DNA from: Minisyncoccia bacterium
GTDB taxonomy: Bacteria; Patescibacteriota; Minisyncoccia; SW-4-49-11
Reading direction: 5' to 3'
NCBI GenBank assembly: GCA_044356725.1
Contig: JBIKVS010000005.1
Location: 7,876-71,875 of the forward strand
DNA: 64,000 nucleotides
Position 1 is the stretch's first letter. Every line of letters begins with the position of its first letter. The notes beneath the pieces are model-generated. The model was given only the letters and a program-made list of their open reading frames with translations. It ran no database searches and was not told where the DNA came from. The translations under genes and the position numbers were made by a program. Positions 11,188-41,142 of this stretch are shown in pieces.

Positions 11188-12339
11188 TTACCGGAACCGA
11201 TACTTTTTCTGACATTTTTTCCAATAACTCATAAATGAACCATAATATGAATTAATCTCAGGATACATATAATCAATTGGTATAAAATTAATGTTAGGTA
11301 TCACATTCCAATGCTCAATCGCAGGATATTGTCTTGCTGTGATGGTTTTATAGTTACTAAGGTCTAAATCACCTATTTCACCCACAAATACCTGGAGATT
11401 ATCGATATTGGAGGCAAGATCAAGTATAAAATTAATTCGCTTTTGAGACATTGGAAACTTAACAAAATGACTTGGTTCTAGAATTAATATTCTATCAGAT
11501 TGAGAGATATGGCTAGCAAATGTTGGATCTAGACTCCAAGGATGAAACAATATAAGGTTTTCTGACTGTACGCCATTATGTTGATATAATTTCATAGCTG
11601 AATCTTGCTCCTGGTACTCCTCTATCCATATATTGAGGAGACATACCAAATCCAAATTCACTGTCTTAACAAGAACATCCGGTGTCTTTAATATTGCTAA
11701 TTCCTCATAAGACACATCAAGAAAGGTGTTATATTGATTTGTCTTAGAATACTTGTTGATATTTTCTTGATTTGCAAAATACTTTTTGGAACTAAATGTC
11801 CCTGATACCCATTGCCATGACAAAGTATTGGAGGCTATATCTCCATCTAGTAGATGATAATACATCCATTGACTTGGGATTTTCCAATATGATTTAGCGA
11901 TATTAGTGACTAGAGAAGCCGTCCACATTCTTGCATGATTATGCATATATCCAGTCTGGTAGAGTTCTTCAATGGCTGAGTCTATAGTATTGATACCAGT
12001 ATTAGCATCCACTATATTTAAGGAGATTTGAGTATTAGAATAAGATGCTGGATGTTTTAGGTCAGTCCAAATATCATCCATTTTATTTTCCCACACTCTA
12101 AGAAAATACTCCTTCCACGCAAGTTCAAATAGCAGCTTTTCTATCTTTTCAGATGAATAATTAGTTTCTAAAAAAGTTTTGACTTGATTTAGACCTATCA
12201 CCCCATGAGTAAGATAGGGCGATAAACGCGTCACATTTCCATCAAGAAAATCACGAGATTTAGAATAAGAAACTGGATCTATGTTGCTTATCAGGTCAAT
12301 TATTTGGCTATACTGAGTAGTAAATTGATTATCCCTCAT
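11188..12339 (-). CDS. cryptochrome/photolyase-family protein with permuted domain order (FAD-binding domain first, alpha/beta domain second)
   Basis: N-terminal half carries TRLSPYLTHG, QTGYMHNHARMWTASL and LLDGDIASNTLSWQWVSG, all hallmark FAD-binding-domain motifs. C-terminal half (LILFHPWSLD...) resembles the photolyase N-terminal alpha/beta domain. The start overlaps the stop of the upstream gene (TAATG). Confidence 0.6.
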   Translation of the reverse strand: MRDNQFTTQYSQIIDLISNIDPVSYSKSRDFLDGNVTRLSPYLTHGVIGLNQVKTFLETNYSSEKIEKLLFELAWKEYFLRVWENKMDDIWTDLKHPASYSNTQISLNIVDANTGINTIDSAIEELYQTGYMHNHARMWTASLVTNIAKSYWKIPSQWMYYHLLDGDIASNTLSWQWVSGTFSSKKYFANQENINKYSKTNQYNTFLDVSYEELAILKTPDVLVKTVNLDLVCLLNIWIEEYQEQDSAMKLYQHNGVQSENLILFHPWSLDPTFASHISQSDRILILEPSHFVKFPMSQKRINFILDLASNIDNLQVFVGEIGDLDLSNYKTITARQYPAIEHWNVIPNINFIPIDYMYPEINSYYGSFMSYWKKCQKKYRFR

Positions 12340-13643
12340 TACTCTTCGCTCTTAGCATTAGCAGGAAGTTCCGCAAACATTAATTGCATAGTAGAGTTAT
12401 CACGAGTTAATCTCTTGATCGTGAGGTCCTCTGCTTTATTATTAGCTAATCTTAGATTATTCTCAGAAGACAAGAGAGCATCTTTTGTTTTTTGTAAATG
12501 GTCGATAGTTTTATCTATCTCTTCAATAGCAGTTTTAAATTTACGACTAGCAAGGTCATAATTTTTAGCAAAGCCTTCTTTGAATTTATTTATATTATCC
12601 TCAAAGTTTGTAATATCAATATTTTGACTTTTTACCAAAGCAAGTTCTGCTTTATACTCCAAAGAATTCATAGCCGCATTGCGTAACAAAGTAATAATTG
12701 GAATAAAAAATTGCGGACGAACAACATACATTTTAGAAAACCGATGAGACACATCAACAATTCCAGAATTATACAGTTCATTATCAGCTTCCAACAGTGA
12801 CACAAGTACAGCATATTCACATTTCTTTTCTGTACGGTCCTTATCCAATTCTCGTAAAAAATCTTCATTTCGCTTTTTTGTAGCAGTTCCGTCTCCCTCA
12901 TTCTTCATTTCAAACATAATTGAGATAATCTCATTACCTGCTTGGTCTGTCTCACGATAAATAAAGTCACCCTTGCTACCAGTTTTAGAGTCATTATCTT
13001 TCTCAAAATAAGCATTCTGAAAAGCAGTCGCACGAAGTTTATTGAATTCTGTCTCACAATGCTGTTCCAGAGTTTCACCAACCATTTTGGTAGATAGTTT
13101 GAGCTTCATATCTTTACGAAGAGCAATTTCATCATCTTTCATTTTTATAATATCATCCTTTGTCTTCAGTTCAGATGCAAACTTCTCATATAGAGATTTC
13201 TCTAATAATTGTTTTTCAGTTTCCTTATTTTTCAAATTATGAGCCAAATCATCTCGCTCTTTTTCAATCCTTTTGACAGCCTCAGTAACACTAAGTTTTT
13301 TCTCTATCTCGGACTTATCAATTTTAGACTTCATCTCAGCTAGTTCAGCCTCTTTCTTTGCCAATTGCTCAGCTAATTTCCGATCCTTTTCAGCCTTTAA
13401 GTCTAATAAATCTCTATCCTTCTTGGCTAATTCCTCTTGTAATTTATTTTTTAAGTTAGATTCAGCTAATTTGACAGCAATTTCTTTTTCTTTCTCAGCA
13501 ATAGATAATCTCTCTCTTAATTCCTCCTCGAATTTATGGTCGCGAACCTGTTTAATAATATCCGCAAAACCAGCCTCATCAACTTTGAAAGCTTTTTTAC
13601 AATTTGGACAAATAATATCGTTCATAATTTTATTCTTATTCAT
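12339..13643 (-). CDS. DUF2130-like protein: N-terminal zinc ribbon, long coiled coil, C-terminal PD-(D/E)xK-like region
   Basis: [33 protein letters not shown], then about 200 aa of heptad-rich E/K sequence, then ...[22 protein letters not shown]... Translationally coupled to the photolyase-like gene. Confidence 0.45.
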
Positions 13644-13701
13644 TCAATATATTTATAAAACACCTCGTAGATAATAAATTCCCTACGAGGTGTTGATGTG
13701 T

Positions 13702-14886
13702 TTACAAAACCTGTCTCAAGACTTCGTTTTCAACTTTATCGTAACAACTTTGCCACACATGTTTATTTTTACCTAACTTATTTGCACTCTTTGCTTCCTT
13801 AAGATGATCAATTACTCTTGTAACTAACTCTGTTTTCATTTCATGAAACATTAAAATTGGATCTGTCTTCCATTTGCATAATCCATCTTTAATCTCAACT
13901 AAGTTCCTAAAAGAGGCAAGTATTGGTAGAATAAATGACGATGGAATAATATATTCTGAATATCCTTCAATAAATTCTAATTCAATTTGCTTCGTTCTTT
14001 TCTTGTTAGCAAGATACATAATACCTTCAAGTTTTCCAAATTTACCTCCCGTTGAATTCCATGTATCTGGCATTTCTTGGTAAATAATATTTTTTAGTTC
14101 AAGAATCTTAGGTAATAATGGTAAATACTTATTCAGCTTATCTCTATGATTTTTAAAATGATTTAGTACTCCAGCCTTACTGCTATAGGCCATTATAGGA
14201 TGACTATTATTATCAAAAGATTCTATGTCAAAACAAATTAAATATGATAATATATCTTTTATATCAATATCCTTTTTGGATCCATCATCATCAAACTCTG
14301 TTTCTTTATAGGCAATTCGATTTGCATAAGTTTCAGAACTCAAAATGTTTTTGATTAAATCAAAGTTACCATATAAATCTTCAATTCCCTGATCTTTCAC
14401 AGCTGCAGACTTATTGCGAGCATATACAATATTGACAGCTTCCTCTTTATCAGTAAATCCACTCAAAATTTCTATTCTCAGATATGCCTCATCAAATGTT
14501 ATACCATCCCCAAGATCTAGTTCATCTAAAAGATATCGTATCACTGTATATGTATGACCTCCATCTAAAATTCCATGTAGATCTGATTGAACCAATTCGA
14601 GATACATATCTTTAGTATTAGTTTTAAAGTCAACCTTATCTACAAGTAATGTAATTCCTCTATTTTTAAAGAAGAATTCTTTTGGGGCATCAGTTAAAGA
14701 TTTTGAAATAATTTTAGAAACTCCAGTTTTTTCTGTAGCTTCTCTAGGATTTATTTTTTTCCATTCTTGTAATTCCTTGGGTACATTTTCAACTTTTACC
14801 ACAGCAATATACATTTGTTTTCCTTCTTGTTCAAGAGGGTTAGGAATACGGCGAAATGATTCTACAGGGACTTTAATAATTTCCAT
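13702..14886 (-). CDS. ParB/Srx-superfamily (DGQHR/DUF262-like) protein, putative defence component
   Basis: GILDGGHTYTVIRYL resembles the DGQ(Q/H)R signature of DUF262/DndB-type ParB-like domains. 394 aa, lies inside the defence island. Followed by a 10-bp-stem hairpin at 13663-13698. Confidence 0.3.
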   Translation of the reverse strand: MEIIKVPVESFRRIPNPLEQEGKQMYIAVVKVENVPKELQEWKKINPREATEKTGVSKIISKSLTDAPKEFFFKNRGITLLVDKVDFKTNTKDMYLELVQSDLHGILDGGHTYTVIRYLLDELDLGDGITFDEAYLRIEILSGFTDKEEAVNIVYARNKSAAVKDQGIEDLYGNFDLIKNILSSETYANRIAYKETEFDDDGSKKDIDIKDILSYLICFDIESFDNNSHPIMAYSSKAGVLNHFKNHRDKLNKYLPLLPKILELKNIIYQEMPDTWNSTGGKFGKLEGIMYLANKKRTKQIELEFIEGYSEYIIPSSFILPILASFRNLVEIKDGLCKWKTDPILMFHEMKTELVTRVIDHLKEAKSANKLGKNKHVWQSCYDKVENEVLRQVL

Positions 14887-15135
14887 AAAATTTAGTTAAG
14901 TTAATAAGTACATAGGACGATATTGTCGTATAAGAATGCTACATATATTTGATAATTAAACTAATTCATAACACAAAAAAGTGCGGTATATGCGCACTTA
15001 GAATTATCAAAACTTATTTTATAATTGTATTATATTAAGTACTAGATATAATCTAAGCACCTTTCTGAGCCTTAGCTACAGACACTGTAGAATGGGTAGA
15101 CCAAAAGTCATTCACTCTACCAGAGACCAACGCGC

Positions 15136-15185
15136 ATAGCAGTCGGTTAGGTTGTTTTTAATATAGCACAATTGATTAAGTTTGT
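15136..15185 (-). promoter_or_regulatory. sigma70-type promoter (TTGACA-17-TATATT) on minus strand
   Basis: Reverse complement of 15145-15185 reads ttgaca aacttaatcaattgtgc tatatt. It drives transcription towards 14886 through a structured leader. Confidence 0.45.
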
Positions 15186-15197
15186 CAAACTATAACA

Positions 15198-18100
15198 TTA
15201 TTTCACAATTTCTCGCTCTTCGGGGGTGAGTTGGTATAAGTCCATTACGAGTTCGTCAATTTCGGCTTCGAGGTGGATTGTGTCGCCATCTTTATTATAT
15301 TTTTTGGCTTCTAGAATTTGGTCTACTAAAGTTTGAATTTTATTAACCATATTTTCATTGGTTTCTGAGATTTTAGGGATAGGTATTTTTTCAAGAAATA
15401 TTTTTTTATATCTATAACCAGTTTCTCCTAGTCCTCCTCCAGCATAATATTTTTTAAAAATATAAGTGACAAAGTTTGAATTTAATAAACCACAAATATA
15501 TTTAATATTATTACCTGTAATCAAAAAAGTAGTAGCCTCACAATATAACTCACCCTTATCAAAATAAAATCTTGGCTCTCTCACAATTTCTGAGTACACC
15601 ACCTTCTCCTTTTCAAATTCGCCCATATAAGCACAATCTCTGAGATTATACTTTGTTTTACCTTTATCACCTCTTTTTGAAAGTTTTGGCTCATATTGAT
15701 TTAGGTGATTTTTTATAGCAGGATACCCATCTATTTGGATTGATGGCACACCTTTATATCCATTATGTGTAGTAATAAGGTATAATCCACTCTCTTCATA
15801 TCCATATCTTTTTATATCTCTTCCTCGTAGTATTAGCTTGATTATCTCTTCACTTTTTGGATCTTCTTTGATTAGTCTTGTTCTGGTCTCTTCATCAATG
15901 ATAAAGGCTTCATTTAGTCCTGTTAGAACTCCTCTATAAATATTTACATCCCAATTTTTGAGTGGTTTACCAAGCTTTTCAATTTTTTCTTTGAGGGCTA
16001 TTTCAGCTTTAGAGCCTATAAACCAAGTGTCTTTGGAAAGTTTATCTATATTTAATGAGTTTTTAGTAATATATTCAGTCAGGTTGTCTCCTTCTTTGAA
16101 ATCATTTTTGAAATGTATAGCTTGGAGTTGGTATTCTTGGGGAGTTCCTTTTTTAGCTAGATAAATATTGGTGTCTACTGTGGCTGATTTGAAGACTTTG
16201 AAGCCTCCAAAATCAATAAGTTGTAAGGGTATGGTATGATCGGCAAAATATCCCCTCAAAGCTTCGCCATAGCCTGCCCGCATCCATTTATTGGAGGTTA
16301 TGTAGCATAATATTCCGTCTTTTCGTAGTAAATCAAAACCTCTTTCATAAAATAAGGCATAAATATCTCCTGTAGATTTGAAAGTTAGATATCCCTCAGA
16401 TTTATAGGCTTTACTTATATATTCTGGGATGAGTTTTTTGTTTTGCAATTGTATATATGGCGGATTTCCAATTACTATGTCAAATCCTTCCGTGACTCCA
16501 AACATCCACTCTGGATCGAACCAGTCTGTGGCTTGATGAATAAATGGCTCCCAGTCTGCAATTTTTTTTGACATAATGCTACTGAATAATTTATCATATT
16601 TTTTTGTTAATTGCTTTTGAATTGATACAAATTGAGTTTTCAAACTTTCTTTTTCAGTATGTTCATTAAAAAATCTAGCTCTTAATGATTTTAATTTTGC
16701 AATTAATACTTCAATTTCTGGATCAGATAATTTACCTTGTCTAGTATTATTATCTAGGGATAATAAAGTGTTAGCGGATACAAATTTGAAGTCTAGGTTT
16801 GGGAGGGCTTCTATTCCCCTATTTTCTTTATTTTCTTGTATTTCTTGGTCAACTATTAAGGATAGGAAAAACCTTAGTCTAGAGATTTCTACGGCTGATT
16901 CTTGTATATCTACTCCGAATATACTAGTTTCTATAATTCCTAGTTTTCTTATATAGTCTATAGCTGGGTTAGATCTAAGTTCATTTCTTAGAGTCTCATT
17001 AGGTAATTTAGCTGTCATTAATTCTAGCCATAGGCTATTATCTGGGTCAATTTTTTGTAATATTATGAATATCTGTTGCAATATTCCCATTGGATAAGCT
17101 CCTGATCCACAGGCGGGGTCTAGGATTTTGAGTGTATCAAGGGCATTGATTATTGCTATTTTATTCTCGGGTGAAATATTGGATTCTTTATCAAAATTTT
17201 CAAAGCATAGGTCATCTAATATTTCTTTATTGATAGAAGTTTTATCTGCTAGATATTGTATGATTGTCTGTCTAACCATATATTCTACGATTGATCTTGG
17301 GGTATAAAAACTTCCTGTAGATTTGCGGGCTGTATCCCCTGTTTCTGGGTTTATCTCTCCTAGAAGATTTTCAAAGATTCTTCCGAGCATTTCTGGGTCT
17401 ACTGAGACTTCTACATCGGTAGTGCTATTCTCATCTATGGTAAAGTTATATCTTTCTAAAATTTGGAATATATCTTCAAAAAGAGAGTTATCTATTATTA
17501 GATTATTTTGATGTAATGAATATCCAGAAAAATTATCTAATTCATAGTAGTCTTGATTTATAGCTTCGAATAATCCTCCATTAAGATATGGTATTTGTTG
17601 AGAATACTTCAAACATTGACCTAGTGCATTATCGTCACGAGATCTAATTTTTTTATTAAGCATTTCAAAAAACACTTTTTCTAGTATTTGGTGATAATAG
17701 TCTGTATAATTCTGAACTGCTTTGGTAGAAATTAGTTCATCTGGGATTAAGCCTTTGCCTTGATTGTCTTTTTTGAATTTGAGAAACCAGACAAAAACTA
17801 ATCTTCCAATAAGTCTGACTGCAAAATCTTGATATATCTTGTGTCCTGTAATTGGATCTGTTGATGGTAATTTGAAAGCTGTATCATATTGTGCTTTAGC
17901 TGTTTTAGCTCCGACGAATTTATGAAACCAAGTGGCTATTTCCTTATAAAAGGCTTCGTTGACTTTCTCTACTGAAAAGGCTTCTATGATTTCGGCTAAA
18001 TTGATGTAGTTTAATTGTGAAATTCTATCTAGGAAGGTTTTATTGCTTTGTTCTCTATCTACAAAGTAGGTATATCTTTTGAAATTATTGTATTTTCTTT

Positions 18101-18482
18101 TATCATCTTGAATGTAGTTATAGATAAAGCTAAATCTGAAGTTAAAGTTGGAGTCATAGAATAAAAAGATTCCGTATTCAAATTGTTGTTGATTTTCTCG
18201 GATGAGATTTTTGGCTAAATCGTATTGTGCTTTCTTACCTGTTTTTTCGGATAGACTTCCATTGACTTTGACACTGATAAATCCTATTTTTTTATTATCT
18301 TCTAATACTTTGATTGCATATAAATATGGCTCAGAGAATTGGTTTTTGTCTATATTATATGTATATAATTCTTGCACTTGTATCATTGTGATACCTGGTA
18401 TATGACTGATATACTCTTCAAATGTATTATGAATTGAGTTTTCTGTCTGAGCCTGTATTATTTCTTGTAATAGGTGTTTCAT
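15198..18482 (-). CDS. Eco57I/MmeI-like N6-adenine DNA methyltransferase with TaqI_C-type specificity domain (Type IIG/IIL-like R-M protein)
   Basis: LDPACGSGAYPM (motif I), VIGNPPYIQ (motif IV, NPPY), C-terminal LTGLNEAF...RGRDIKRY target-recognition motif. 1094 aa. Confidence 0.75.
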   Translation of the reverse strand: MKHLLQEIIQAQTENSIHNTFEEYISHIPGITMIQVQELYTYNIDKNQFSEPYLYAIKVLEDNKKIGFISVKVNGSLSEKTGKKAQYDLAKNLIRENQQQFEYGIFLFYDSNFNFRFSFIYNYIQDDKRKYNNFKRYTYFVDREQSNKTFLDRISQLNYINLAEIIEAFSVEKVNEAFYKEIATWFHKFVGAKTAKAQYDTAFKLPSTDPITGHKIYQDFAVRLIGRLVFVWFLKFKKDNQGKGLIPDELISTKAVQNYTDYYHQILEKVFFEMLNKKIRSRDDNALGQCLKYSQQIPYLNGGLFEAINQDYYELDNFSGYSLHQNNLIIDNSLFEDIFQILERYNFTIDENSTTDVEVSVDPEMLGRIFENLLGEINPETGDTARKSTGSFYTPRSIVEYMVRQTIIQYLADKTSINKEILDDLCFENFDKESNISPENKIAIINALDTLKILDPACGSGAYPMGILQQIFIILQKIDPDNSLWLELMTAKLPNETLRNELRSNPAIDYIRKLGIIETSIFGVDIQESAVEISRLRFFLSLIVDQEIQENKENRGIEALPNLDFKFVSANTLLSLDNNTRQGKLSDPEIEVLIAKLKSLRARFFNEHTEKESLKTQFVSIQKQLTKKYDKLFSSIMSKKIADWEPFIHQATDWFDPEWMFGVTEGFDIVIGNPPYIQLQNKKLIPEYISKAYKSEGYLTFKSTGDIYALFYERGFDLLRKDGILCYITSNKWMRAGYGEALRGYFADHTIPLQLIDFGGFKVFKSATVDTNIYLAKKGTPQEYQLQAIHFKNDFKEGDNLTEYITKNSLNIDKLSKDTWFIGSKAEIALKEKIEKLGKPLKNWDVNIYRGVLTGLNEAFIIDEETRTRLIKEDPKSEEIIKLILRGRDIKRYGYEESGLYLITTHNGYKGVPSIQIDGYPAIKNHLNQYEPKLSKRGDKGKTKYNLRDCAYMGEFEKEKVVYSEIVREPRFYFDKGELYCEATTFLITGNNIKYICGLLNSNFVTYIFKKYYAGGGLGETGYRYKKIFLEKIPIPKISETNENMVNKIQTLVDQILEAKKYNKDGDTIHLEAEIDELVMDLYQLTPEEREIVK

Positions 18483-18545
18483 ATATTAGGTTATTACCTA
18501 TAATATTCTCACTTTTATGATATATTGTCAATTTAATATTTTATG

Positions 18546-18656
18546 ATTTCTATCGACAAAAATTGTCGATAGAAATTTATTACCCGCTATATTGGCTTAT
18601 TTATAAGCTTTTTCTATCGACAATTTTTGTCGATAGATTGTCGATAGAAATTATTC
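18546..18656. promoter_or_regulatory. conserved operator-like module with perfect palindrome ATTTCTATCGACAA-AAA-TTGTCGATAGAAAT plus two further half-sites
   Basis: 31-bp perfect inverted repeat at 18546-18576. Second inverted repeat ctatcgacaa-ttt-ttgtcgatag at 18615-18637. Extra half-site ttgtcgatagaaat at 18640-18653. The same roughly 115-bp module recurs at 40965-41080. Confidence 0.5.
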
Positions 18657-20102
18657 ATCTAAAAATTTAGGGTTTAGATAATATCTAGTGTATCGATTCT
18701 CTCCTTGTTTTATTAGAATATCATTTTCAACTAGCATCGTAATTTCATATCGTGCCTTTCTATCATCTCCTTTCTTTTCCATATTATTGAGTTTACAATA
18801 TTCAGGATTTGATAATCCTTTGGCTGGATTATGTTTTAATTCCAAAAGAGCAACTAATTGAGTATCTTTCAATTTATATTTTTTTCTAAACTGAGCCAAC
18901 CAATTATGATCATTTTCCTGAACAAATGCCGATGTAAATAATGTTGTTTTGAATATTTCTCCGTTATTTTCAAATTTTGGCATAGGTAATCCTGAATCTT
19001 TTGTAGCATTTAATATGGTTCGTATTCCTCTACCTCTTGTCTCGGTAATACTATAATCTCGAAGGAATTTAATAAGTAAAGGATTTCTTGATTGTGGTGT
19101 TGCATTATCTATATTCTCTATTGGTACAAGACTTCTACCAGGATTTGCAAATTCTACTCTATCAGAGTAAATATCTATCTGTATTCTAGCGGTACGATTA
19201 GTATAATCTCTATGTGCGATTGCATTAGCTAAGGTTTCACGAATAGCAATTTCGGGAATTGCTAAATATTCTTTTCGTTTCAATTCTGTACTGATTTCAC
19301 TATGTACTGGTAGTTTGGAAATAATAAATTTAAGTGCATTATCAAATTGCTCGAGAACTGTCCCATTGAACTCTTTATCATCAATACTAACTTCCTCAAT
19401 ATTTTGTGATACTTTAGATACTCCTCTATATTGAGTGACTGCTATATTAAATGTAGGTGATCCTATATCTTGTAATGCTTCTTGTTTTGAAAATACTAAT
19501 AGCCCCAATAACGTAGGTTTATTATCTTTAATTACCTGCATCTTAGTTAGAATTTGATTAGGAGTAAAATCTTGATATATATTATATCTTTTTTTATTTA
19601 CTACTTTTATATAATCTAATACTTTTGTATTATCTATTGATTCTTCTATTGAGTTATCTAAAATTTTTAATTCTGCACCTCCTTCATTTGCTAATGCAAA
19701 TCTACGAATATGATCATCTGTTATTTGAGCATTTGTAGTCCCAGCTCTAATTCTTGCTCCTCGAGGGACACCTCGCTTTTTAGAATATATTGGTCGATGA
19801 TATGTAGGAGCTGGAGGTATATAAATTTGTATTATAGAATCTTTTGTAACTTTTACATCAGGAATAATCTCCACATTAAATACTGATTTACATATACTAT
19901 ATACACTCTGTTGTAATGTATCTAAATATTTGTTCTCAATACCATGTATAACACCATTCGTATCTATACCTAAATAGATAGTACCTCCATCTAAATTAGA
20001 AAAGGCTGAAATAGTTTCCCATAAAGCATCTGGTAATTTATCTTTTGTTATGAATTTAAACTCAACTGTGTCAGTTTCTATATTAGGGTATAAAGTATTC
20101 AT
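18651..20102 (-). CDS. AlbA_2 (Schlafen-like divergent AAA) + HATPase_c_4 domain protein (putative DNA-binding regulator/defence-associated)
   Basis: N-terminus TVEFKF...ISAFSNLDGGTIYLGIDTNGVIHGIEN (AlbA_2 signature). C-terminus RETLANAIAHRDY...IDIYSDRVEFANPG (HATPase_c_4). The start overlaps the stop of the upstream PLD-SNF2 gene. Confidence 0.65.
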   Translation of the reverse strand: MNTLYPNIETDTVEFKFITKDKLPDALWETISAFSNLDGGTIYLGIDTNGVIHGIENKYLDTLQQSVYSICKSVFNVEIIPDVKVTKDSIIQIYIPPAPTYHRPIYSKKRGVPRGARIRAGTTNAQITDDHIRRFALANEGGAELKILDNSIEESIDNTKVLDYIKVVNKKRYNIYQDFTPNQILTKMQVIKDNKPTLLGLLVFSKQEALQDIGSPTFNIAVTQYRGVSKVSQNIEEVSIDDKEFNGTVLEQFDNALKFIISKLPVHSEISTELKRKEYLAIPEIAIRETLANAIAHRDYTNRTARIQIDIYSDRVEFANPGRSLVPIENIDNATPQSRNPLLIKFLRDYSITETRGRGIRTILNATKDSGLPMPKFENNGEIFKTTLFTSAFVQENDHNWLAQFRKKYKLKDTQLVALLELKHNPAKGLSNPEYCKLNNMEKKGDDRKARYEITMLVENDILIKQGENRYTRYYLNPKFLDE

Positions 20103-23100
20103 TATTGTTTCTTATTTTCTATTGCAATTATTATATCTACGGATATTTTATCTGTTTCTTGTCTGATATTATTGAGATAATTTTCACTTAAATAGGATTT
20201 TAATTTGGTCAAAATATCTGTAAGTTCATCTATATTTTGAACTTTAGTGATTTTGCGAGCGGTTTCATCTGAAGTTGTTCCATAGGAGATTATATCTTCT
20301 CTGAGTTCTCTTGCGATTGTTTCTAGGTTTTTAGGTATTTGAAAATTATCTAAGTATTTATCTAAGACGGTAAGGGCTTTATCTTGTACGGTTTGGCTGG
20401 ATGTTCTGAGGGGTTTTTTACTTATAAACTTCTTTTGTAATTCTGGGTAATGTTGCCAAAAATTATTAGATAATTCAACAGCTTTATCGTCTGGATTGGC
20501 TTTAATATTATCTATTATTGATTCTATGGTTGGATCTTCTATTGTACTATCTGGTTCATAATTGGTTGATCTTACCTGGAAGGCTTTGCCTTTTTTGAGG
20601 AATACATATAGATTGTCTTGAGTACCTGTTTTGGCTACTTTTATTCTATCTGGTAGTCTTATGATTTTTTGGTATAGTTCTGGATGTTGTGATTGAAATT
20701 CAAAAAATTCTTTTCTAATTTTAGTTAGGAAGCTGGAGCTTTCTTCTTGTTCCGGATTGGTGGTGAGTCTTGTATATAGTCCTGCTGGAGTTGGTTGTTC
20801 GTCTATGTCAAAGATCTTAGCATCTTCTCCTAAGATTGTGTGTATCATAAACATTTTGTTGGTGGCGATTTCTTTGCTTTTGAGAATATTATTTCCTTTA
20901 TCTGTTGGGAAATAGTTATAAATATATAGTTTTTCGAATACTTTTGCACTGAGTCTGTTGATTCTTCCTACTCTTTGGATTACTCTTGTTGGATTCCATG
21001 GGATATCGTAGTTGATGACTATTCCTGCTCGATTGAGGTTGAATCCTTCTGAGATACGATCTGTTCCAAGTATAATATCATAATCATTGGCTTGTTCAGA
21101 TAATGATACTGAAGCGTCAAAATTAGTTTGAATTTTTTTATTTATATTATTATCTATACCTTTGTTAATTACTAAAACTCTGTTTGGGAAATACTTTTCT
21201 AATAATGGCTTAATGTATTCCAATGTATCTAAAAACTCTGTAAAAATTACTGTTTTACGATTTGGTTCTTTGTGTAATGACGATTTTATGGATTCTATTA
21301 GTTTTTGGGCTTTTGGATCTTGGTTGACTTGATTTAGCGATAATTCTTCAATTTCACTTTTGATGTGTTTTAATAATTCTATATCTGCTTTGATATTATT
21401 GATAAAGTCATTTTTTTGTAAGAATGCTTTACTGTATAGGTTGTATACTGATTTCTTAGTTTTAACTTTATTTATATCTTTTTTTGATTCTTGTTCTAAT
21501 CTTTCGATTTCTTTTCTAATTTCATTGAAATCTAGGTCTTCATCATCTTGGAATTTATCGAATAATTCTCTAGCGAAGATGTATTTTCCTGTTTCATCTA
21601 TAACTTTATCTACAAATTCGTATAATTTGAGTGTATTTATAATACTTTGATAAAATGAACCGAAGGAACTTTCAAATCTTTTGACTAAATGTCTAGTCAT
21701 AAAGTCAAAAAGATTGTTCTGAGCTTGGTATTCAAAGTTTTCTGCAAGTCCTGTTATTTTCTCGGGGGACTTTTTATAATTACCAGCTTCATATACTACT
21801 GGTCTATATATTGCTCCAGTGAATTTGCCTTCTCTTCCAAAATATCTTTGTATAACATTGTCATAAAATTCAGATTGCTCAGGGTCTAGTTCAAATAACT
21901 GAGCTTCTGGATCTTGAACTTGTGACATATCTGGGATGTCTTTTTGATAGACTGGATCTTGTTCTAAATCTTTACGATTTCTTCGGATTAGGACGGGTTC
22001 TATAATTGATCTTACTTGATCTGATAGGTATCTAGCTCTAATATTGAGATGTTCTATGTCTATTTTGTCTACTTTTTTTCCTATCAAAGACTGATAATCT
22101 TGCAATGCTCTTTGTTGTTTGAGAGGGTCTGGCGATTTATAATTTTTACGGATGTCTGAGATTCTCTTGAAATCATTTTCAAATACTCTGAATTGGTATT
22201 CTAAATTACCATCTATTGAAATCCTTGATTGTTTTGGTATATCAAATAACTTAACCATTGAGAAAAAGTCAGATGGTGAGTTGTTAAAAGGGGTTGCTGT
22301 TAATAAAATTACTTTGCGGTTTTTACAAAGAATATTGAGGGCTTCATATTGTGAGGTATTTTCATTACGAAATCTATGTGCCTCATCTACTAAAACATAT
22401 TCATATTTGTCTCTTAATTTGTCTGATTGGTATTTTTCTAAAAAGCCTTCTACATTTCCTGATGAAATAATATCCCAATGCTTAAAATCAAAGGTTTCTT
22501 TATAATTTGCCCAACCACTTGTATGTGCTTCTCCAATTAGTCCTGGTGGGCTGACTATTATTCCTTTGCCTAAGCCAAGTTCTCGGATTATCATACTGGA
22601 TATAACTGACTTCCCTAGCCCTACAACATCGGCAATAATTACTCCATTATAATTCTCTATTGCTGATAGTGCTTGTTGTACGGCATCTAATTGATATTGA
22701 TATGGAGTAAATCCATTTGCTCTTAGTACATCTTGTATCCCTGATGAAACTTCTTGTTGACTTTTTGACTTGATATATGTCTCCAAAACCTTCATATATG
22801 CTTCATAGGGAGTTATATTGGCAACTTGGGTTTCGTCTTGTATGGTTTCAAATAATCTTTGTTTAATGACATCATTTTCGGTAATTTCAATAGATGTGTC
22901 CCATAGGGTATCAAAATATTTTATACTTTCTTCTACTGGATGATTATCTAACAGTTGTACATTATATTCATTCTGAGTGTTTAATCCAGCTTGTGTGAGA
23001 TTACTGCTACCTGTAATTACTACACCTTTATTGACTATATTATTTTCTAATTCAAAAATGTATAATTTAGCATGATTTGGATCTAAGGTTTTGCGAATTA

Positions 23101-23500
23101 TTAATTTGTTTTCCTGTATCATTTGTAAAAAGAACTTTACTTGTTCATAAAACTCTTTGGTATCATTATTTTTATGATTTAATGACTTTTTAATGGATTG
23201 TATATAATCGTCTATATGTTGCTCTTTACTTTTTTTGATATAACCTATTCTTTCTCTCTCTTTGCGGGACTCGGGAGGAGTGACACCAAATTCCACTACT
23301 TTTTGTATGTCACTATCTATATTTAGTCCTACTAGAATCTTGAGTTGTATATTAGGTTTTTTCATTAAGCTATCGAGTAAAACCTCTATCCCGGAAAAAT
23401 AAAAAAATCCAACTAAAAATTTCAGCTCTTTACTTTGTGAAATAAGCTCTTTTACTCTAGTTTCAAGAGTTAAATTTTTATCTGAATTAGAAATAAACAT
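20102..23500 (-). CDS. PLD-family nuclease (HKD) fused to SNF2-family helicase
   Basis: N-terminus HAKLYIFE...GSSNLT (HxK...GSxN PLD motif). Helicase motifs GLGKS (I), DEAHRFRN (II), LLTATPFNN (III), QRVGRINR (VI). 1132 aa. Confidence 0.75.
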   Translation of the reverse strand: MFISNSDKNLTLETRVKELISQSKELKFLVGFFYFSGIEVLLDSLMKKPNIQLKILVGLNIDSDIQKVVEFGVTPPESRKERERIGYIKKSKEQHIDDYIQSIKKSLNHKNNDTKEFYEQVKFFLQMIQENKLIIRKTLDPNHAKLYIFELENNIVNKGVVITGSSNLTQAGLNTQNEYNVQLLDNHPVEESIKYFDTLWDTSIEITENDVIKQRLFETIQDETQVANITPYEAYMKVLETYIKSKSQQEVSSGIQDVLRANGFTPYQYQLDAVQQALSAIENYNGVIIADVVGLGKSVISSMIIRELGLGKGIIVSPPGLIGEAHTSGWANYKETFDFKHWDIISSGNVEGFLEKYQSDKLRDKYEYVLVDEAHRFRNENTSQYEALNILCKNRKVILLTATPFNNSPSDFFSMVKLFDIPKQSRISIDGNLEYQFRVFENDFKRISDIRKNYKSPDPLKQQRALQDYQSLIGKKVDKIDIEHLNIRARYLSDQVRSIIEPVLIRRNRKDLEQDPVYQKDIPDMSQVQDPEAQLFELDPEQSEFYDNVIQRYFGREGKFTGAIYRPVVYEAGNYKKSPEKITGLAENFEYQAQNNLFDFMTRHLVKRFESSFGSFYQSIINTLKLYEFVDKVIDETGKYIFARELFDKFQDDEDLDFNEIRKEIERLEQESKKDINKVKTKKSVYNLYSKAFLQKNDFINNIKADIELLKHIKSEIEELSLNQVNQDPKAQKLIESIKSSLHKEPNRKTVIFTEFLDTLEYIKPLLEKYFPNRVLVINKGIDNNINKKIQTNFDASVSLSEQANDYDIILGTDRISEGFNLNRAGIVINYDIPWNPTRVIQRVGRINRLSAKVFEKLYIYNYFPTDKGNNILKSKEIATNKMFMIHTILGEDAKIFDIDEQPTPAGLYTRLTTNPEQEESSSFLTKIRKEFFEFQSQHPELYQKIIRLPDRIKVAKTGTQDNLYVFLKKGKAFQVRSTNYEPDSTIEDPTIESIIDNIKANPDDKAVELSNNFWQHYPELQKKFISKKPLRTSSQTVQDKALTVLDKYLDNFQIPKNLETIARELREDIISYGTTSDETARKITKVQNIDELTDILTKLKSYLSENYLNNIRQETDKISVDIIIAIENKKQ

Positions 23501-23647
23501 TTAGATGTATTTATATTTATATATTATAGCATATTTTGATGTTTTGTCATATTTAATCATTAATTTATAATATAGTATTCTTTACTTTAAATTATAATAA
23601 AAGTATAATATTGATAAAATTGACTTACATTAATATTTTATAATAAA

Positions 23648-25159
23648 GTGATTCCTAAGACTAAAAATCAGCTTATACATAAGATTAGAAGGACTATATT
23701 AATAGATATCGAGTCTCAAAAACATAGTGTTCAGCTCAAAGATCTAATTAATGATGATTCTACTGTTGTTTTATTAAATGAGGCTGGTATCTTCACTATT
23801 TCTGATTTAGTGACAATAGATATATTCAAGTTAAGTTCTATTGATGAGGGTGTTCTTACTGAAATCAATAGTCAAATAAATCTTTTATCAAAAGGATTAG
23901 ATTCTAATCTGGTTATCCCTGAAAGGCAGCAAGATATTCATCCAATCAATCAAATTGAACTAAATTCTCTTGAAGAGGTTATCAATTCTATTGAAGAAAA
24001 AGATAGAAATATAATAATAGAAAGGTATGGATTGTTGGGCGAAAAGAAAAAACTGAACGAGATAGGTGAAGATTTGGGGGTATCTCGTCAAAGAGTTCAT
24101 CAAATTGTAGAGAGAAATTTAAATGATATAAATAAGAAATATGTTCCCAATCACTTTATAGAGTCTGAAAATGTATCAAAATTAGCAGATCAGGTTATAC
24201 CTATTGATGCTATTGGTAATCTTTCGAATACTTATAGTAATATTGGTTTGATTGAATTTATTATTGATGCTTTCCCATCTTTGTGGATTGTCATTTATAA
24301 TGATAAGAACTTAAAGACCGATATTTTGATTAACAAGGATTTAATTAAATCTTTGCTGAATAAGATTTCTAGGGTTAAGAGCTTTTTGAAGCAACAGAAA
24401 GAATTTGTATCAATCCAACAGATCTCTGAATTATTTGAAATCAACATTGAGGTTATAAAAATAATTGATAATACTGTGATTAAAAATGAAACTATTGCCA
24501 TTAAAACAAATAAGAATATTCCTTTTGGGATGTTTGGGATAATTTATGATGTTATTAAATCAGCTGGTAAGCCATTGAAAATCCAAGAGATTGTAAAAGT
24601 GTCTGGGTTAACTCAAAATCAGGTTAGAAGTAGACTGGATAGAGATAATGGGAAGTTTTTCATTAATGTTGGTAAAAGTATTTATGCTTTGTCAGAGTGG
24701 GGCTTTTCAAAGCTACAAACTAATGATTTGATCTATAATTATATTAAGGAGTCGAATGAACCGAAATCGATTATGGAAATTCTCAGGTTTGTACGTATGC
24801 ATAAAAGGATTAATGACTCTTCTATTATTGCTGCTATATCAATAGATCCTAGAATAGTAACTATTAGACCAAAAACATACTCCCTAATAGAATGGGGTGC
24901 TAAACCTTATCATACTAGATCTGGTACAAAATATGCTATTAATTGTTATGATGCTCTTATATCTATATTAAGTGAAGTGGATACAGATTTAACCATAAGT
25001 GAAATTTGTAATTTGTTAAATGATAAATATGGAGATGATGTAACTTCTTCTCAGACAACAATTTACGCTAACTTAAAGAAATTAAAGGAAAGTGGGAGGA
25101 TTGAATTTATTATTAATTACGGTAAACAATATTATAAATATAAATTAATTAAGGTATAG
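23648..25159 (+). CDS. putative regulator: RNAP alpha-CTD-like HhH + sigma70 region-4-like HTH + three winged-helix-like repeats
   Basis: LNEAGIFTISDLVTIDIFKLSSIDEGVLTEINSQI (alphaCTD-like). IIIERYGLLGEKKKLNEIGEDLGVSRQRVHQIVERNL (sigma r4-like). Repeated ...Y(A/S)L(S/I)EWG motifs in C-terminal tandem wH-like units. Divergent from the PLD-SNF2 operon. GTG start. Confidence 0.4.
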   Translation: MIPKTKNQLIHKIRRTILIDIESQKHSVQLKDLINDDSTVVLLNEAGIFTISDLVTIDIFKLSSIDEGVLTEINSQINLLSKGLDSNLVIPERQQDIHPINQIELNSLEEVINSIEEKDRNIIIERYGLLGEKKKLNEIGEDLGVSRQRVHQIVERNLNDINKKYVPNHFIESENVSKLADQVIPIDAIGNLSNTYSNIGLIEFIIDAFPSLWIVIYNDKNLKTDILINKDLIKSLLNKISRVKSFLKQQKEFVSIQQISELFEINIEVIKIIDNTVIKNETIAIKTNKNIPFGMFGIIYDVIKSAGKPLKIQEIVKVSGLTQNQVRSRLDRDNGKFFINVGKSIYALSEWGFSKLQTNDLIYNYIKESNEPKSIMEILRFVRMHKRINDSSIIAAISIDPRIVTIRPKTYSLIEWGAKPYHTRSGTKYAINCYDALISILSEVDTDLTISEICNLLNDKYGDDVTSSQTTIYANLKKLKESGRIEFIINYGKQYYKYKLIKV

Positions 25160-28125: not shown

Positions 28126-31100
28126 TTACCTCATCACCTTATCCATCAAATGTTGATAGGTATCCACTACATCATATATTACAGAGTCATGTCCTAGAGC
28201 TTCAAAATGCTTTTTAGCATAGTCAATTTTTAATTTTTCCACCGTTTTGAGTTGCATACTACTCAAAGAACCTTTGGTCTCAGCAATAAAATAGATATGT
28301 TTAATATTTCTCTCATAGAATACTATTGCCCAATCTGGATTATAATTGCCAACTGGAGTCGGGATAAAGAATCCTCTTGGTAATTTTGCATAAACTAAAA
28401 CATTTTCATTGTTTTTTTCTAAATCATCAGCAAATCTATATTCAATTTCAGAATCTGTCTTAACATAAGAATAAATATGCCTCTTAACCTCTTGAATGTT
28501 TTTACCTAATTCACCTCTCAGATTATTGATAGTAAACACATCATCCTCATATATCTGACCTGTCTGATTATAAGTAATATGATTGATTAGAGTAGTAGCT
28601 TTTTGTTCTTGAATAATTCTTGAGACCTCTTTAATAAAGTGTTCTGGATTTTCTTGGAATAGCATAAATTTATGTGGACTAATCCTAGATAAAATTTTAG
28701 CTACGGTTTTTCGTGTAATATTAGCTTCTTTGGCAATTTCAGCTATTAAGTCATATTTCAAATCCCCCAAAACATTTTCTGCTTTATGCATTTGGGAAGA
28801 TAATTTAGTCATAGTAGTTTTGGTTTTTACATATTCAGTTCGTATTTCATTGACTTGCTCTCCTTTTGTCACTTGAATCATCACTCTTTGGACATTTAAC
28901 TCTCTATCAATAGCCTTTATGCTCACATCTACCAATTCTTCAGTATCAAAAGAAACCGTATAACTTGTTTTGACCTTCAATTTAGACCATAGATTTTGAA
29001 ACTCCTGTTTATAAAAGTTATCATTAGGCTTTATATTCTCTTCTTTAATATTTTGTTTTCTATCATTTTCTGTAGCTTTATAAACACTAGTATTGTATAC
29101 ACTCATCAGAATTTCAGCCAAATGCTCTTTATAAGGCTCTAAACTTTCAGGAACAGACCAATCTCCCGTACTAATACCTTGTACTAAAGTATCAGTAATA
29201 TGATAATTCTCATCAATATAATTTTCTTTGTTTAACTTCATAATTAAGTCCATAGCATCTTTAGAAGTCATAGTCATACTATCTTCACCATCTTTAGACT
29301 TTAGCAATTTACCTTCAAATAAAGGAACTTCTACTATAATTGGACGATGCGAGAGCGAGTCAAAAATTTCTCTTTGTAATTCATTGGCAAAAGTATCATA
29401 AGATTCATTAGCAATAATAGTCACCGTATTAACATCAAAAAATCTATCATCTAAGGCACTAAAATCCATTCTCTCCCCATATTGATTAACCGCAATTCTC
29501 AATCCTCGTCCAATTTCCTGCCTTTTAGAAATACTAGAACTGCTATGTCTCAAAGTACAAATTTGGAAAATATTAGGATTATCCCAACCCTCTCTCAAAG
29601 CAGAATGTGAGAAAATAAATCTAGTAGGTTCAGACAAACTCAATAATCTCTCTTTTTCCTTCATAATCAAGTTATAGGCATCAATATCATCACTCCCACC
29701 TTCGCTTTGTTTATCCTTAGAATCAATAGCTCGACCTTTTTTATCAATCGAAAAATACCCATTATGAATTTTAGAAACTTCCCATTGATTCAAATACTGC
29801 TCATATTCAGGAGCTAATAAATTCTGCTGAGACACCGCTCGGGTATATTCTCTTTCAAAAATTTCCTCATATTCAGAGCGAATAATATTCCCCGCCTCAT
29901 CATAAGCCCGATATTTAGACACTTCATCAATGAAAAACAAAGTCAAAACTTTAATCCCTAAAGCATACAATTCCTGCTCCTTCTCCAAATGCGAAGCAAT
30001 CGCCTCCCGAATTTGAATCGTACGAATATGTTTCTCATCAATATTCCCCATCACTTGTCCCACTTCCAAACTAACTCCATTAGTAAAGCTAACCGTATTA
30101 GTCAAAGCATTGATTTCCTTGACTACAAAACCTTGATACTGAGCTAATTCTCCAGAAATATCATACAAATTATCCCCTTCTCTAATTTTTTTCAAAACCT
30201 TTTTGATACCATTACCTTGTTTAGTCTCAATCTCCATCTGAATAGAAGCATTCGGATATTCTCTCGTGCTAATATTAATCCTATCCAAAAATAGATAACT
30301 ATTGGTACCAGTACTTCCCTTCGCCTCAATTCCCTTGACCCGAATTTTCTTCACCAACTTTTTATTATAGGCATCAATCGCATCCAGCCGATAAATTTTA
30401 TTAAATTCCTCTTTGTGAGTAGCACTATATCTGACAATAAATAAAGGACTAAACTCCTGCAACATAGACTCGGCAGTTTTCCCAAATCTCTGTGGTTCAT
30501 CAATAATCAAAATCGGATTAGTCTTGCGAATCAAATCAATTGGTTTTTCGGAATTAAGAGCGTCAATTTCTTGAAAAATCTTCCTATTATCCTTACCTCT
30601 ACTCCCAAAAGCCTGATAATTCATCACAATAACCTCAATCTCACTACTTTGGACAAATTTTTTAATATTCACCAGATTAGATGAATTCTTAGTATCATAA
30701 GCAAAATAACGAAGCTTTTTGCCATATAATTCTTGAAAATGATCCGATGTAATCTGAAGTGACTTCAAAACCCCCTCCCGAATTGCAATAGACGGCACCA
30801 TAATAATAAATTTATTCCAGCCATAAGCTCGATTTAATTCAAACATAGACTTGGTATAGACATAAGTCTTACCTGTACCCGTCTCCATCTCAACTGTAAA
30901 ATTATAGCCACCTTCCAGTTTTTGACTCACTGGTAAACCTTGCTCTTTTTGAATTTTTTGGAGATTAGATAAAAGTTTAGAATAATCCAAATCTAACCTT
31001 CTATTCGCAAACATATACTCATCCACCCATTGCTGGTCTAATTGTCCTTTATTATATAATTCCCGACCTAAGACTTGCTTCCCAGACTCTTTATTCTGCC

Positions 31101-31170
31101 CATCAAAAACCCTAATCAAAGCCTCTGTCGCTTCTATTTGGTATTGTTGTTGTTTGAAATGCAGTTTCAT
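28126..31170 (-). CDS. res: Type III restriction enzyme Res subunit (helicase + PD-(D/E)xK endonuclease)
   Basis: TGTGKTYVY (motif I), IIDEPQRF (motif II), C-terminal PDWAIVF...IYFIAETKG nuclease motif. 1014 aa. Confidence 0.8.
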   Translation of the reverse strand: MKLHFKQQQYQIEATEALIRVFDGQNKESGKQVLGRELYNKGQLDQQWVDEYMFANRRLDLDYSKLLSNLQKIQKEQGLPVSQKLEGGYNFTVEMETGTGKTYVYTKSMFELNRAYGWNKFIIMVPSIAIREGVLKSLQITSDHFQELYGKKLRYFAYDTKNSSNLVNIKKFVQSSEIEVIVMNYQAFGSRGKDNRKIFQEIDALNSEKPIDLIRKTNPILIIDEPQRFGKTAESMLQEFSPLFIVRYSATHKEEFNKIYRLDAIDAYNKKLVKKIRVKGIEAKGSTGTNSYLFLDRINISTREYPNASIQMEIETKQGNGIKKVLKKIREGDNLYDISGELAQYQGFVVKEINALTNTVSFTNGVSLEVGQVMGNIDEKHIRTIQIREAIASHLEKEQELYALGIKVLTLFFIDEVSKYRAYDEAGNIIRSEYEEIFEREYTRAVSQQNLLAPEYEQYLNQWEVSKIHNGYFSIDKKGRAIDSKDKQSEGGSDDIDAYNLIMKEKERLLSLSEPTRFIFSHSALREGWDNPNIFQICTLRHSSSSISKRQEIGRGLRIAVNQYGERMDFSALDDRFFDVNTVTIIANESYDTFANELQREIFDSLSHRPIIVEVPLFEGKLLKSKDGEDSMTMTSKDAMDLIMKLNKENYIDENYHITDTLVQGISTGDWSVPESLEPYKEHLAEILMSVYNTSVYKATENDRKQNIKEENIKPNDNFYKQEFQNLWSKLKVKTSYTVSFDTEELVDVSIKAIDRELNVQRVMIQVTKGEQVNEIRTEYVKTKTTMTKLSSQMHKAENVLGDLKYDLIAEIAKEANITRKTVAKILSRISPHKFMLFQENPEHFIKEVSRIIQEQKATTLINHITYNQTGQIYEDDVFTINNLRGELGKNIQEVKRHIYSYVKTDSEIEYRFADDLEKNNENVLVYAKLPRGFFIPTPVGNYNPDWAIVFYERNIKHIYFIAETKGSLSSMQLKTVEKLKIDYAKKHFEALGHDSVIYDVVDTYQHLMDKVMR

Positions 31171-41080: not shown

Positions 41081-41142
41081 TTTAGTCCTGTTTGAGTTCT
41101 AAATTATGGCAAATTCGCTATAATTAAAATTTTTGGAGTAAA

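Follow-up and report, generated by a model that had tools for sequence, protein, structure and literature searches.

In the Type I, Type III and Type ISP restriction-modification (RM) systems, a motor-driven nuclease is coupled to a methylase and specificity function, and in NgoAVII and CglI a nuclease of the phospholipase D (PLD) type works with a superfamily 2 (SF2) ATPase. The locus described here resembles these systems in its expected function, but not in membership. It lies in a 64,000-nucleotide stretch of contig JBIKVS010000005.1 (assembly GCA_044356725.1, from a Minisyncoccia bacterium; positions 7,876 to 71,875 of the forward strand), the whole of which is called the window below. 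It is made of three consecutive minus-strand genes, named here HEL (a PLD-SNF2 protein), SLFN (a Schlafen-histidine kinase (HisK)-winged helix-turn-helix (wHTH) gene) and MT (a methyltransferase). HEL matches the Pfam family RE_NgoFVII (5.7e-08) and departs from the Type I, III and ISP enzymes in its motor family (SNF2), its nuclease family and its subunit layout. The anatomy of the genes and the linkage of HEL to MT are well supported. By analogy with the described systems, the locus would be a two-gene, ATP-dependent RM-like system, HEL-MT, with a separate gene cassette, SLFN, between its genes, a reading to which we give a probability of about 0.6.

The closest described systems share parts of this composition. 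The effector of MANTIS, Gao_RL and the Type-2, DUF499-centred BREX-related (BR) loci (MtsA-D) has, like HEL, an N-terminal HKD/PLD domain joined to an SF2 ATPase, each chain bearing a single HKD motif. As at the HEL-MT locus, the MANTIS effector shares its operon with an N6-adenine methyltransferase, which fits an RM-like logic of methylated self and restricted non-self; for an HKD-helicase with an N6-adenine methyltransferase, such a logic is a proposal in BR type 2 and has partly been demonstrated in MANTIS. However, the AAA+ DUF499 loader (MtsA) and DUF3780 (MtsB) are missing at the HEL-MT locus, the HEL motor is of the SNF2 type, and MtsC, which has to be loaded, belongs to the alpha class (DPPY), whereas MT is a gamma-class NPPY enzyme with a TaqI_C target recognition domain (TRD) of its own. 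Class 1 DISARM and ARMADA also associate an SNF2 helicase (DrmD/ArmA) with an Eco57I/PglX-like adenine methylase (DrmMI/ArmB), and DISARM uses a PLD nuclease as well (DrmC). Yet the YprA-family helicase (DrmA/ArmC) and the DUF1998 protein (DrmB) that define them are missing here, and the PLD domain, separate in DISARM, is fused to SNF2 in HEL. MT has the PglX-type gamma-class methyltransferase feature of BREX, but no PglZ, BrxC/PglY ATPase or other BREX gene accompanies it. The order of its parts (N-terminal domain, helical spacer, gamma-class methyltransferase, TRD) is that of the Type IIG/IIL enzymes MmeI, BpuSI, DrdV and Cj0031 and of PglX/BrxX, and the mosaicism of its TRD recalls the phase-variable or shuffling Type IIG and PglX genes; unlike Type IIG/IIL enzymes, MT does not conserve the MmeI triad and comes with a dedicated helicase-nuclease. 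SLFN, for its part, has the Ex4ExK motif and the Slfn-HisKinase architecture of the HisKinase-HTH class of prokaryotic Schlafens (pSlfns; Nat Microbiol 2026).

Pfam and PADLOC scans of the stretch from 11.2 to 40.9 kb, covering every open reading frame (ORF) of 120 aa or more, detected no DrmA, DUF1998, PglZ, BrxC, DUF499 or DUF3780, in agreement with an earlier reading of the window made from the letters and translations (the sequence-only reading), which had seen no DISARM or BREX core genes. No DrmA or DrmB was seen beside HEL in the related loci annotated with Pfam. Hma, BR type 2, MANTIS, DISARM, ARMADA and BREX were rejected as the identity of the locus because core genes are missing, those of MANTIS, BR type 2 and Hma being taken as defined in PMC12839542 and the MANTIS preprint. 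We class HEL-MT as a variant of the RM-like helicase-nuclease/methylase kind, for which the literature searched gave no name. The adjacency itself was noted before, in a passing mention by Milman et al. of Cj0031-like Type II RM genes with an adjacent PLD+SNF coding sequence; otherwise the pair is represented in the literature searched only through its DISARM, ARMADA, BREX and MANTIS relatives.

The HEL-MT pair

Relatives of HEL were sought by a pattern scan of GTDB species representatives, which confirmed at least 594 of them (594 of 600 among the matches listed), making the pair very common. Eighty loci were kept and, with those from exact-protein look-ups, gave 84 non-redundant loci, in which ORFs were called and labelled by the window proteins. 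MT was found in 63 of these loci, and in all 34 that have at least three ORFs on both sides of HEL; in every one of the 21 loci without MT, HEL lies no more than two ORFs from a contig end. The two genes are on the same strand in 62 of the 63 cases, in the order HEL then MT in 42 loci and MT then HEL in 21. In 38 loci the two genes are direct neighbours, and in the other 25 one or a few variable genes stand between them. Overlaps of HEL and MT are frequent. The genes occupying this slot elsewhere are of the defence-island type (PDDEXK_3, DUF559, AAA_14+DUF4143, RhuM, Bro-N, AbiEii, DUF1016_N). An OLD-family gene flanks several pairs, and the pair has a patchy distribution across many phyla. 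Since MT accompanies HEL in every locus with enough context on both sides while the intervening genes are variable defence cargo, the conserved unit is a two-gene HEL-MT pair with a permissive slot. The recurring association of a PLD-SNF2 gene with an Eco57I-like methyltransferase, seen already in the sequence-only reading, is borne out by these counts; the "three-gene module" that the same reading proposed is not, since SLFN is facultative (see below).

The features of the locus, whose three ORFs had been called at the same positions before, are as follows (L009 is a locus of a 96%-identical strain):

23523-23550, minus strand: promoter-like site ahead of HEL, ATGACA-16-TATAAT extended by TG (agreement with the scanned consensus at 11 of 12 positions)
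20102-23500, minus strand: HEL, 1132 aa, single-HKD PLD nuclease domain and SNF2-family motor
23000-23074, minus strand: codons of the single HKD motif, H143-x-K145 ... G164-S-S-N167 (read off the translation)
18651-20102, minus strand: SLFN, 483 aa, Schlafen nuclease domain, HATPase_c_4 and wHTH-like C-terminal tail
18549-18648, minus strand: iteron-like array, five exact TCTATCGACAA, beginning 2 nt past the SLFN stop
18502-18531, minus strand: promoter-like site for MT, TTGACA, spacer, AATATT/GAATAT (consensus match only)
15198-18482, minus strand: MT, 1094 aa, gamma-class N6-adenine DNA methyltransferase with its own TRD
15297-15596, minus strand: variable TRD segment of MT, about residues 950-1094 (comparison with L009)
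16565-16764, minus strand: second variable segment of MT, about residues 550-650 (comparison with L009)
14979-14999, minus strand: intrinsic-terminator-like hairpin with a T-run beyond MT, where the transcription unit probably ends
40976-41082, minus strand: further copy of the iteron element (107 bp at 84% identity, with four exact TCTATCGACAA)

Pfam agrees with the domains that had been assigned by eye to all three proteins. Besides RE_NgoFVII, HEL matches PLDc_2 (4.7e-09), SNF2-rel_dom (3.2e-14) and Helicase_C (9.1e-17); beyond the PLD and SNF2 parts it has a C-terminal region of about 230 aa to which no role is assigned. The promoter-like site, a consensus match only, is 23 nt upstream of its ATG. 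In PADLOC, HEL is collinear over residues 10-900 with PDLC01075 "HKD+Snf2" (8e-28) and matches DrmD (4.8e-31) in the C-terminal half of the helicase only and HmaA (6.5e-27) partially. The family counts hundreds of full-length PLD-SNF2 homologues (about 1110-1130 aa, 44-48% identity) from many phyla. In 19 homologues H143, K145 and G164-S-S-N167 are invariant, as are the motor motifs, namely the Walker A GLGK (294-297), DE(A)H (372-375), TATP and Q-R-x-G-R (842-846). The N-terminal 250 aa of HEL hold a single HxK motif, that is one HKD per chain. In BfiI and SauUSI, the HKD active site is formed by a dimer. MtsD, too, has one HKD per chain and needs a dimer for its active site (MANTIS preprint). 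Having one HKD per chain, HEL would likewise need to dimerise.

The motor of HEL has an SNF2 fold, with CSB, Ino80 and RapA as top matches; SauUSI is not among the matches listed. The sequence-only reading had named a housekeeping RapA/HepA orthologue as an alternative identity for HEL. RapA is indeed its top structural match, but for the motor only, at 12-13% identity, and sequence similarity is limited to about 55 residues (E about 2e-4). Because the resemblance is confined to the motor, RapA has no PLD domain and the HKD of HEL is invariant, this identity was rejected. Unlike a RapA orthologue, HEL is also set in a defence island and strictly linked to MT.

MT matches Eco57I (3.2e-39), TaqI_C (5.9e-11) and N6_Mtase (2.7e-09) in Pfam. 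Its best PADLOC matches are Type IIG models (REase_MTase_IIG, 1e-161), with further matches to PglX (4e-20) and, over residues 384-538 only, DrmMI (3.3e-18). Among its homologues, D455-P-A-C-G-S-G (motif I) and N673-P-P-Y (motif IV) do not vary; motif I stands ahead of NPPY and a TaqI_C TRD is present, which places MT in the gamma class. The family profile matches CamA, BseCI, BrxX/PglX, TaqI, BpuSI and MmeI over the methyltransferase and TRD part only. An AlphaFold2 model built from an alignment of database homologues (pLDDT 81.3) has CamA as its best structural match in Foldseek (TMt 0.67, catalytic half). PglX/BrxX (8q56/8c45) is matched over about 1070 columns (TMq 0.45-0.47), MmeI with a TMq of 0.42, and BseCI, BpuSI and DrdV are found as well. 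No second MT was found by tblastn in the window.

Whether MT carries an MmeI-like nuclease at its N-terminus had been left undecided. The layout is MmeI/PglX-like, with a sub-threshold MmeI_hel match at residues 253-305 that fits it and, at residues 36-141, a predicted alpha/beta domain resembling the MmeI-type nuclease fold. The catalytic residues are another matter. MmeI_N is absent from the Pfam matches of MT. At the hairpin positions taken to correspond to D...ExK of MmeI, a mapping that leaves the call on the nuclease less than absolute, residues vary across 43 (or 27) homologues; the window protein reads A-I-K and S-V-K (S70-V-K72). In the first 100 residues of the family no acidic residue or lysine is invariant. 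From these positions the N-terminal domain appears catalytically dead and an active nuclease there is unlikely. An MmeI-type nuclease was thus rejected, as unsupported by Pfam, by profile comparison with the PDB or by column conservation. Since the residues of such a nuclease are not conserved in MT, HEL is likely the nuclease of the pair.

In comparison with L009, MT is 94-100% identical outside two blocks, which lie at about residues 450-650 (74, 80, 58 and 28% identity) and 950-1094 (46, 32 and 65%). This looks like the pattern expected from an exchange of recognition specificity. In another locus (L092), MT is only 40% identical while HEL is 77% identical. In two further loci (L005, 13362-17112; L007, 13375-16924) the methylase is split into an Eco57I/N6_Mtase ORF of about 915-935 aa and a separate ORF of 240-346 aa carrying TaqI_C or M_Eco57I_C, which is either a separate specificity subunit or the product of a frameshift.

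The Schlafen gene and its 3' repeats

SLFN matches SLFN_AlbA_2 (9.7e-15) and HATPase_c_4 (2.2e-22) in Pfam. Its E9-x4-E14-x-K16 is invariant in 20 homologues, and the family profile matches the active-site regions of SLFN5, SLFN8, SLFN11, SLFN12 and SLFN14. According to passages of the pSlfn paper (PMC13056530), Ex4(E/D)xK is the catalytic motif of prokaryotic and human Schlafens, and Slfn with HisKinase or HisKinase-HTH is the commonest pSlfn architecture (34% + 19%). As had been noticed, SLFN starts where HEL stops, with a TAATG shared by the two at 20102. The spacer between SLFN and MT, described as operator-containing and about 170 bp long, measures 168 bp (18483-18650) and does hold operator-like repeats, namely five exact TCTATCGACAA.

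SLFN is a facultative, embedded gene and not a part of the conserved unit. In the closest relative (L009/L010), whose HEL is 97.5% identical (98% by BLASTP) and whose DNA is 96.6% identical, MT follows 22 bp after HEL and there is no SLFN (43 bp are unaligned in blastn). What this relative lacks in comparison with the window is 18484-20101, precisely the interval bounded by the HEL stop and the MT start. L001 (HEL 76% identical) has no SLFN either. Among the 84 HEL loci a SLFN-type gene occurs in 11, between the pair in six, beside HEL in three and nearby in two. The HEL-SLFN-MT trio, with the same overlap and spacer, is found again in L003 (HEL 58% identical), L091 (77%) and L092-L096 (77%), the last at an unrelated chromosomal site. 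In the trio loci of the L091 and L092 types, SLFN is 92-93% identical, against 77% for HEL and 40-76% for MT, so that the SLFN segment was shared more recently than its neighbours. A Parabacteroides (P. distasonis) plasmid has the order HTH, SLFN-like, SNF2, N6 methylase.

Homologues about 50% identical to SLFN are mostly away from HEL or MT, and some are inside housekeeping operons. Two such homologues (about 45-50% identical), each with its own repeat array, were located between sucC and sucD (L118, 6882-10394) and between a glycosyltransferase gene and sucCD (L133, 2031-6651). The position of homologues inside housekeeping operons suggests a cassette-like insertion, landing between genes with its own downstream promoter. 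According to passages of Rakesh & Krishnan, Schlafen-minimal His-kinase-wHTH proteins are widespread (at least 1017 taxa), are encoded inside BREX and BREX-related loci and serve there as back-up effectors; an optional SLFN agrees with this.

The array that follows SLFN is made of two direct and one inverted copy of the partly palindromic TCTATCGACAA, then of a palindromic pair. With up to one mismatch, TCTATCGACAA has 11 matches in the window against 1.0 expected, and none of 100 shuffles had as many. The promoter-like site at 18531-18502 comes after the array, inside the inserted segment and ahead of MT, and is kept in L091 and L092, which hold the same cassette. Such arrays are a property of the family. 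For 78 additional SLFN-homologue loci, an array was defined as at least three copies of a non-trivial 8-mer within 120 nt past the stop; arrays follow 39 of 57 (68%) non-identical full-length SLFN-family genes and 9 of the 943 other genes (1%) of the same loci (Fisher 2e-47). Nearly all copies are in direct orientation. Their spacing is 11 nt (51 cases), 10 nt (14) or 12 nt (8), they begin 0-15 nt past the stop, and they often fall into two clusters with 44-64 nt between them. The motif is found upstream of the SLFN-family gene in only 1 of 39 loci, for which reason terminal repeats of a transposon-like element were rejected as an explanation. The passages of the pSlfn paper (PMC13056530) and of Rakesh & Krishnan that we drew on mention neither a 3' array nor a cassette-like insertion into operons. 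In seven loci (L127, L143, L105, L122, L140, L142, L118) inspection by eye showed a CC(T/C)CTGTTA-like motif in the stretch of about 45 nt that separates the clusters.

The repeats differ among lineages (TCTATCGAC(A/C), TCTAACGACAA, TTATCTACA, TTACCTACA, ATATCGCCCC, ATAGCTAAAA, GGGGCCAAA and a palindromic ACTTGC..GCAAGT), and they differ together with the protein. The C-terminal helix contains a conserved DD..A, and the next residue is K or R in 21 of 21 proteins with ..GAC repeats, and N or T in all 12 with ..TAC, ..CGCCC or ..CGGAC repeats. Because this covariation is what direct base readout by the helix would give, the SLFN protein would be expected to bind its own 3' array through the wHTH. 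For the commonest class of bacterial Schlafens, to which no phenotype has been attached so far, the arrays are a concrete candidate DNA ligand, and they would show how accessory effectors can be plugged into defence operons without silencing the downstream gene.

The second copy of the iteron element (40976-41082) is just upstream of the promoter of another SNF2 gene of the window (37642-40881). Next to it, tblastn detected no SLFN remnant and no decayed SLFN or MT. The single SLFN protein may regulate this copy in trans together with the first. One further, isolated exact TCTATCGACAA is present at 52005-52015.

Proposed mechanism and alternatives

In the reading that we favour, MT would recognise a short DNA motif and methylate host DNA, which would mark self and supply specificity. 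HEL, dimerised to form the nuclease active site, would be the restriction component: loaded or licensed at unmethylated MT sites, it would translocate and cut foreign DNA, in the role played by HsdR, Res, the Type ISP motor-nuclease or MtsD of MANTIS. SLFN would have arrived as a cassette spanning exactly the interval from the HEL stop to the MT start, bringing a 3' array of 11-bp period, whose repeats its wHTH would bind, and a promoter that restores MT transcription. Rather than an obligate subunit, it would be an additional layer, serving as a back-up effector that cleaves tRNA, as a regulator of the gene downstream, or as both. It is in this sense that we infer methylation, restriction, an interaction of HEL with MT, binding of the repeats by the wHTH and RNase activity. 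HEL-MT would then be the simplest layout of the methylation-based defence group, with one specificity/methylase protein and one motor-nuclease, and a tractable model for the coupling of site recognition to cutting.

Several points weigh against this reading. The literature searched offered neither a name nor an experiment for the pair, so that methylation, cleavage and defence are all inferred. The MANTIS methyltransferase needs an AAA+ loader and MtsD cleavage was not reconstituted; a simple two-component mechanism is therefore not guaranteed. A few members of the MT family carry E-x-K at the MmeI position, and some homologues might thus still cut DNA. As to SLFN, Pfam finds no HTH in its C-terminal 87 aa, the wHTH being assigned from the literature and the appearance of the sequence. 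The partition of helix residues with repeat types has a Fisher value of 2.8e-9 that is not corrected for phylogeny, and according to passages of PMC13056530 His-kinase-type pSlfns tested alone gave no defence. Lastly, at least three other contexts have the trio, again with a 1-nt overlap, so that in this lineage the three genes may travel and work together.

A more far-reaching proposal, which we advance tentatively and think doubtful as a whole, joins two statements: that Slfn-HisK-wHTH proteins are DNA-tethered, self-contained cassettes, and that HEL and MT are a minimal RM class present in hundreds of species. The cassette protein would read, with its own wHTH, repeats spaced by one helical turn and placed right 3' of its stop codon; the cassette would insert between operon genes, those of HEL-MT among them, its array and promoter controlling the downstream gene, and would also control a second defence operon through 40976-41082, while its tRNA-cleaving nuclease would stay parked until infection frees it. 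If this were true, HEL+MT would be an SNF2-driven, PLD-cutting minimal two-gene RM class.

The main alternative to the two-gene reading is a genuine three-component system, in which SLFN would be, in this lineage, a needed sensor, regulator or second effector that might, for example, control MT from the iteron/promoter region and cleave tRNA when restriction is blocked. The translational overlap of SLFN with HEL, the identical trio layout in L003, L091 and L092-L096, one of these sites being unrelated, and the location of the iterons directly upstream of the MT promoter would be expected of such a system. SLFN-type genes are, moreover, the commonest accessory of the pair (11/84, and also the P. 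distasonis plasmid), and passages of the literature link Schlafen-HisK genes to BREX and BR loci. We nevertheless consider it unlikely: L009/L010, in which HEL has hardly changed, and L001 do without SLFN, as do 73 of the 84 loci with regard to any SLFN-type gene; where present, the gene may be between, upstream or downstream of the pair; its homologues at about 50% identity live in housekeeping operons without HEL or MT, as between sucC and sucD; and the far greater conservation of SLFN than of its neighbours suggests a recent lateral spread of the cassette.

The remaining two explanations are less likely. MT could be a self-contained Type IIG/IIL enzyme that both cuts and methylates, HEL being separate or auxiliary, such as a remodeller helping MT or a modification-dependent (Type IV) helicase-nuclease of the SauUSI kind. 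The PADLOC matches of MT to Type IIG models, its MmeI-like overall fold with an alpha/beta N-terminal domain and the E-x-K of some homologues are compatible with this, as are the naming of such genes as Cj0031-like Type II RM, with the PLD-SNF coding sequence adjacent, by Milman et al., and the ability of SauUSI and MtsD, both PLD and SF2 enzymes, to act autonomously (MANTIS preprint). That D...ExK is not conserved in 43 or 27 homologues, the window protein having S-V-K, makes it improbable, as does the strict same-strand and often overlapping linkage of HEL to MT, unexpected for independent systems; besides, self DNA would be at risk from a Type IV enzyme encoded in one operon with a methylase. 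Very improbable, finally, is a housekeeping or epigenetic module outside defence, consisting of a RapA/HepA-like remodeller and a regulatory orphan methylase, although RapA is the top Foldseek match of HEL and CamA, the best match of the MT catalytic half, is itself an orphan regulatory methylase. RapA accounts for the motor only and has no PLD domain, whereas the HKD residues of HEL are invariant; the pair is patchily distributed across phyla and resides among GmrSD, Type III-like RM, AIPR and RhuM genes, in an island that is mosaic between 96%-identical strains, with TRD swapping in MT.

The surrounding island

The defence island extends from two tRNA genes at about 6.1 kb to a Dus gene at about 46 kb. 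In addition to HEL-SLFN-MT, it holds RhuM genes, FAD_binding_7, DUF2130 and AIPR genes, GmrSD and a Type III-like Mod/Res pair. The SNF2 gene at 37642-40881 is a full-length member of PDLC01075 "HKD+Snf2" (3e-129, against 8e-28 for HEL) and is 25% identical to HEL, in the motor only. The DUF4391 gene at 37017-37637 had been regarded in the sequence-only reading as the small partner whose middle position SLFN takes at the HEL locus. This equivalence was rejected, since no DUF4391 homologue occurs in the 84 HEL loci and the gene belongs to another system. On the Enterobacter plasmid NZ_CP083835, the gene order is WYL regulator, SNF2, DUF4391, OLD-type nuclease, DUF2130, methyltransferase and DEAD/DEAH helicase, and the window SNF2, DUF4391, Mod (31179-33116) and Res (28126-31170) match genes of this set with 52, 26, 38 and 46% identity. 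On account of these matches, the second module is a four-gene SNF2-DUF4391-Mod-Res system separate from HEL-MT, and DUF4391 is no counterpart of SLFN. In the window, the module is parted by an opposite-strand gene for a 1235-aa protein (33266-36973) of no confident family.

Three RhuM-family genes are present in the island (7966-9018, 43215-44222 and 44785-45762), of which one is a fusion with Fic. At 11188-14886, genes of the FAD_binding_7 (photolyase-like), DUF2130 and AIPR families follow one another, and the DUF2130 there is 66% identical to the one embedded in the Enterobacter SNF2-DUF4391 system. The AIPR gene (13702-14886) was rejected as a member of the HEL-MT system, as a lineage-specific neighbour that is not conserved with the pair. 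The gap between MT and AIPR (14975-15188, minus strand) has a strong promoter-like site, TTGACA-17-TATATT with TG, and a terminator-like hairpin about 180 nt later. It folds somewhat better than its shuffles (z -2.47) and is not conserved in L009, L001 or L091. A search of Rfam with the window and this spacer returned three tRNAs only, with no match in 14975-15188.

The named relatives of HEL, SLFN and MT are mostly from uncultured bins, several of which have candidate-phylum names. On the other side of the locus, divergent from HEL and in this lineage only, the plus strand at 23648-25159 encodes a 503-aa protein with sigma70_r4/KorA-like HTH regions. Not being conserved with the pair, this lineage-specific neighbour was also rejected as a member of the system. 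The gene is found again in L009 (145-1656) and L091 (90-1586), and in L091 a TCTATCGACAA palindrome lies just past its 3' end.

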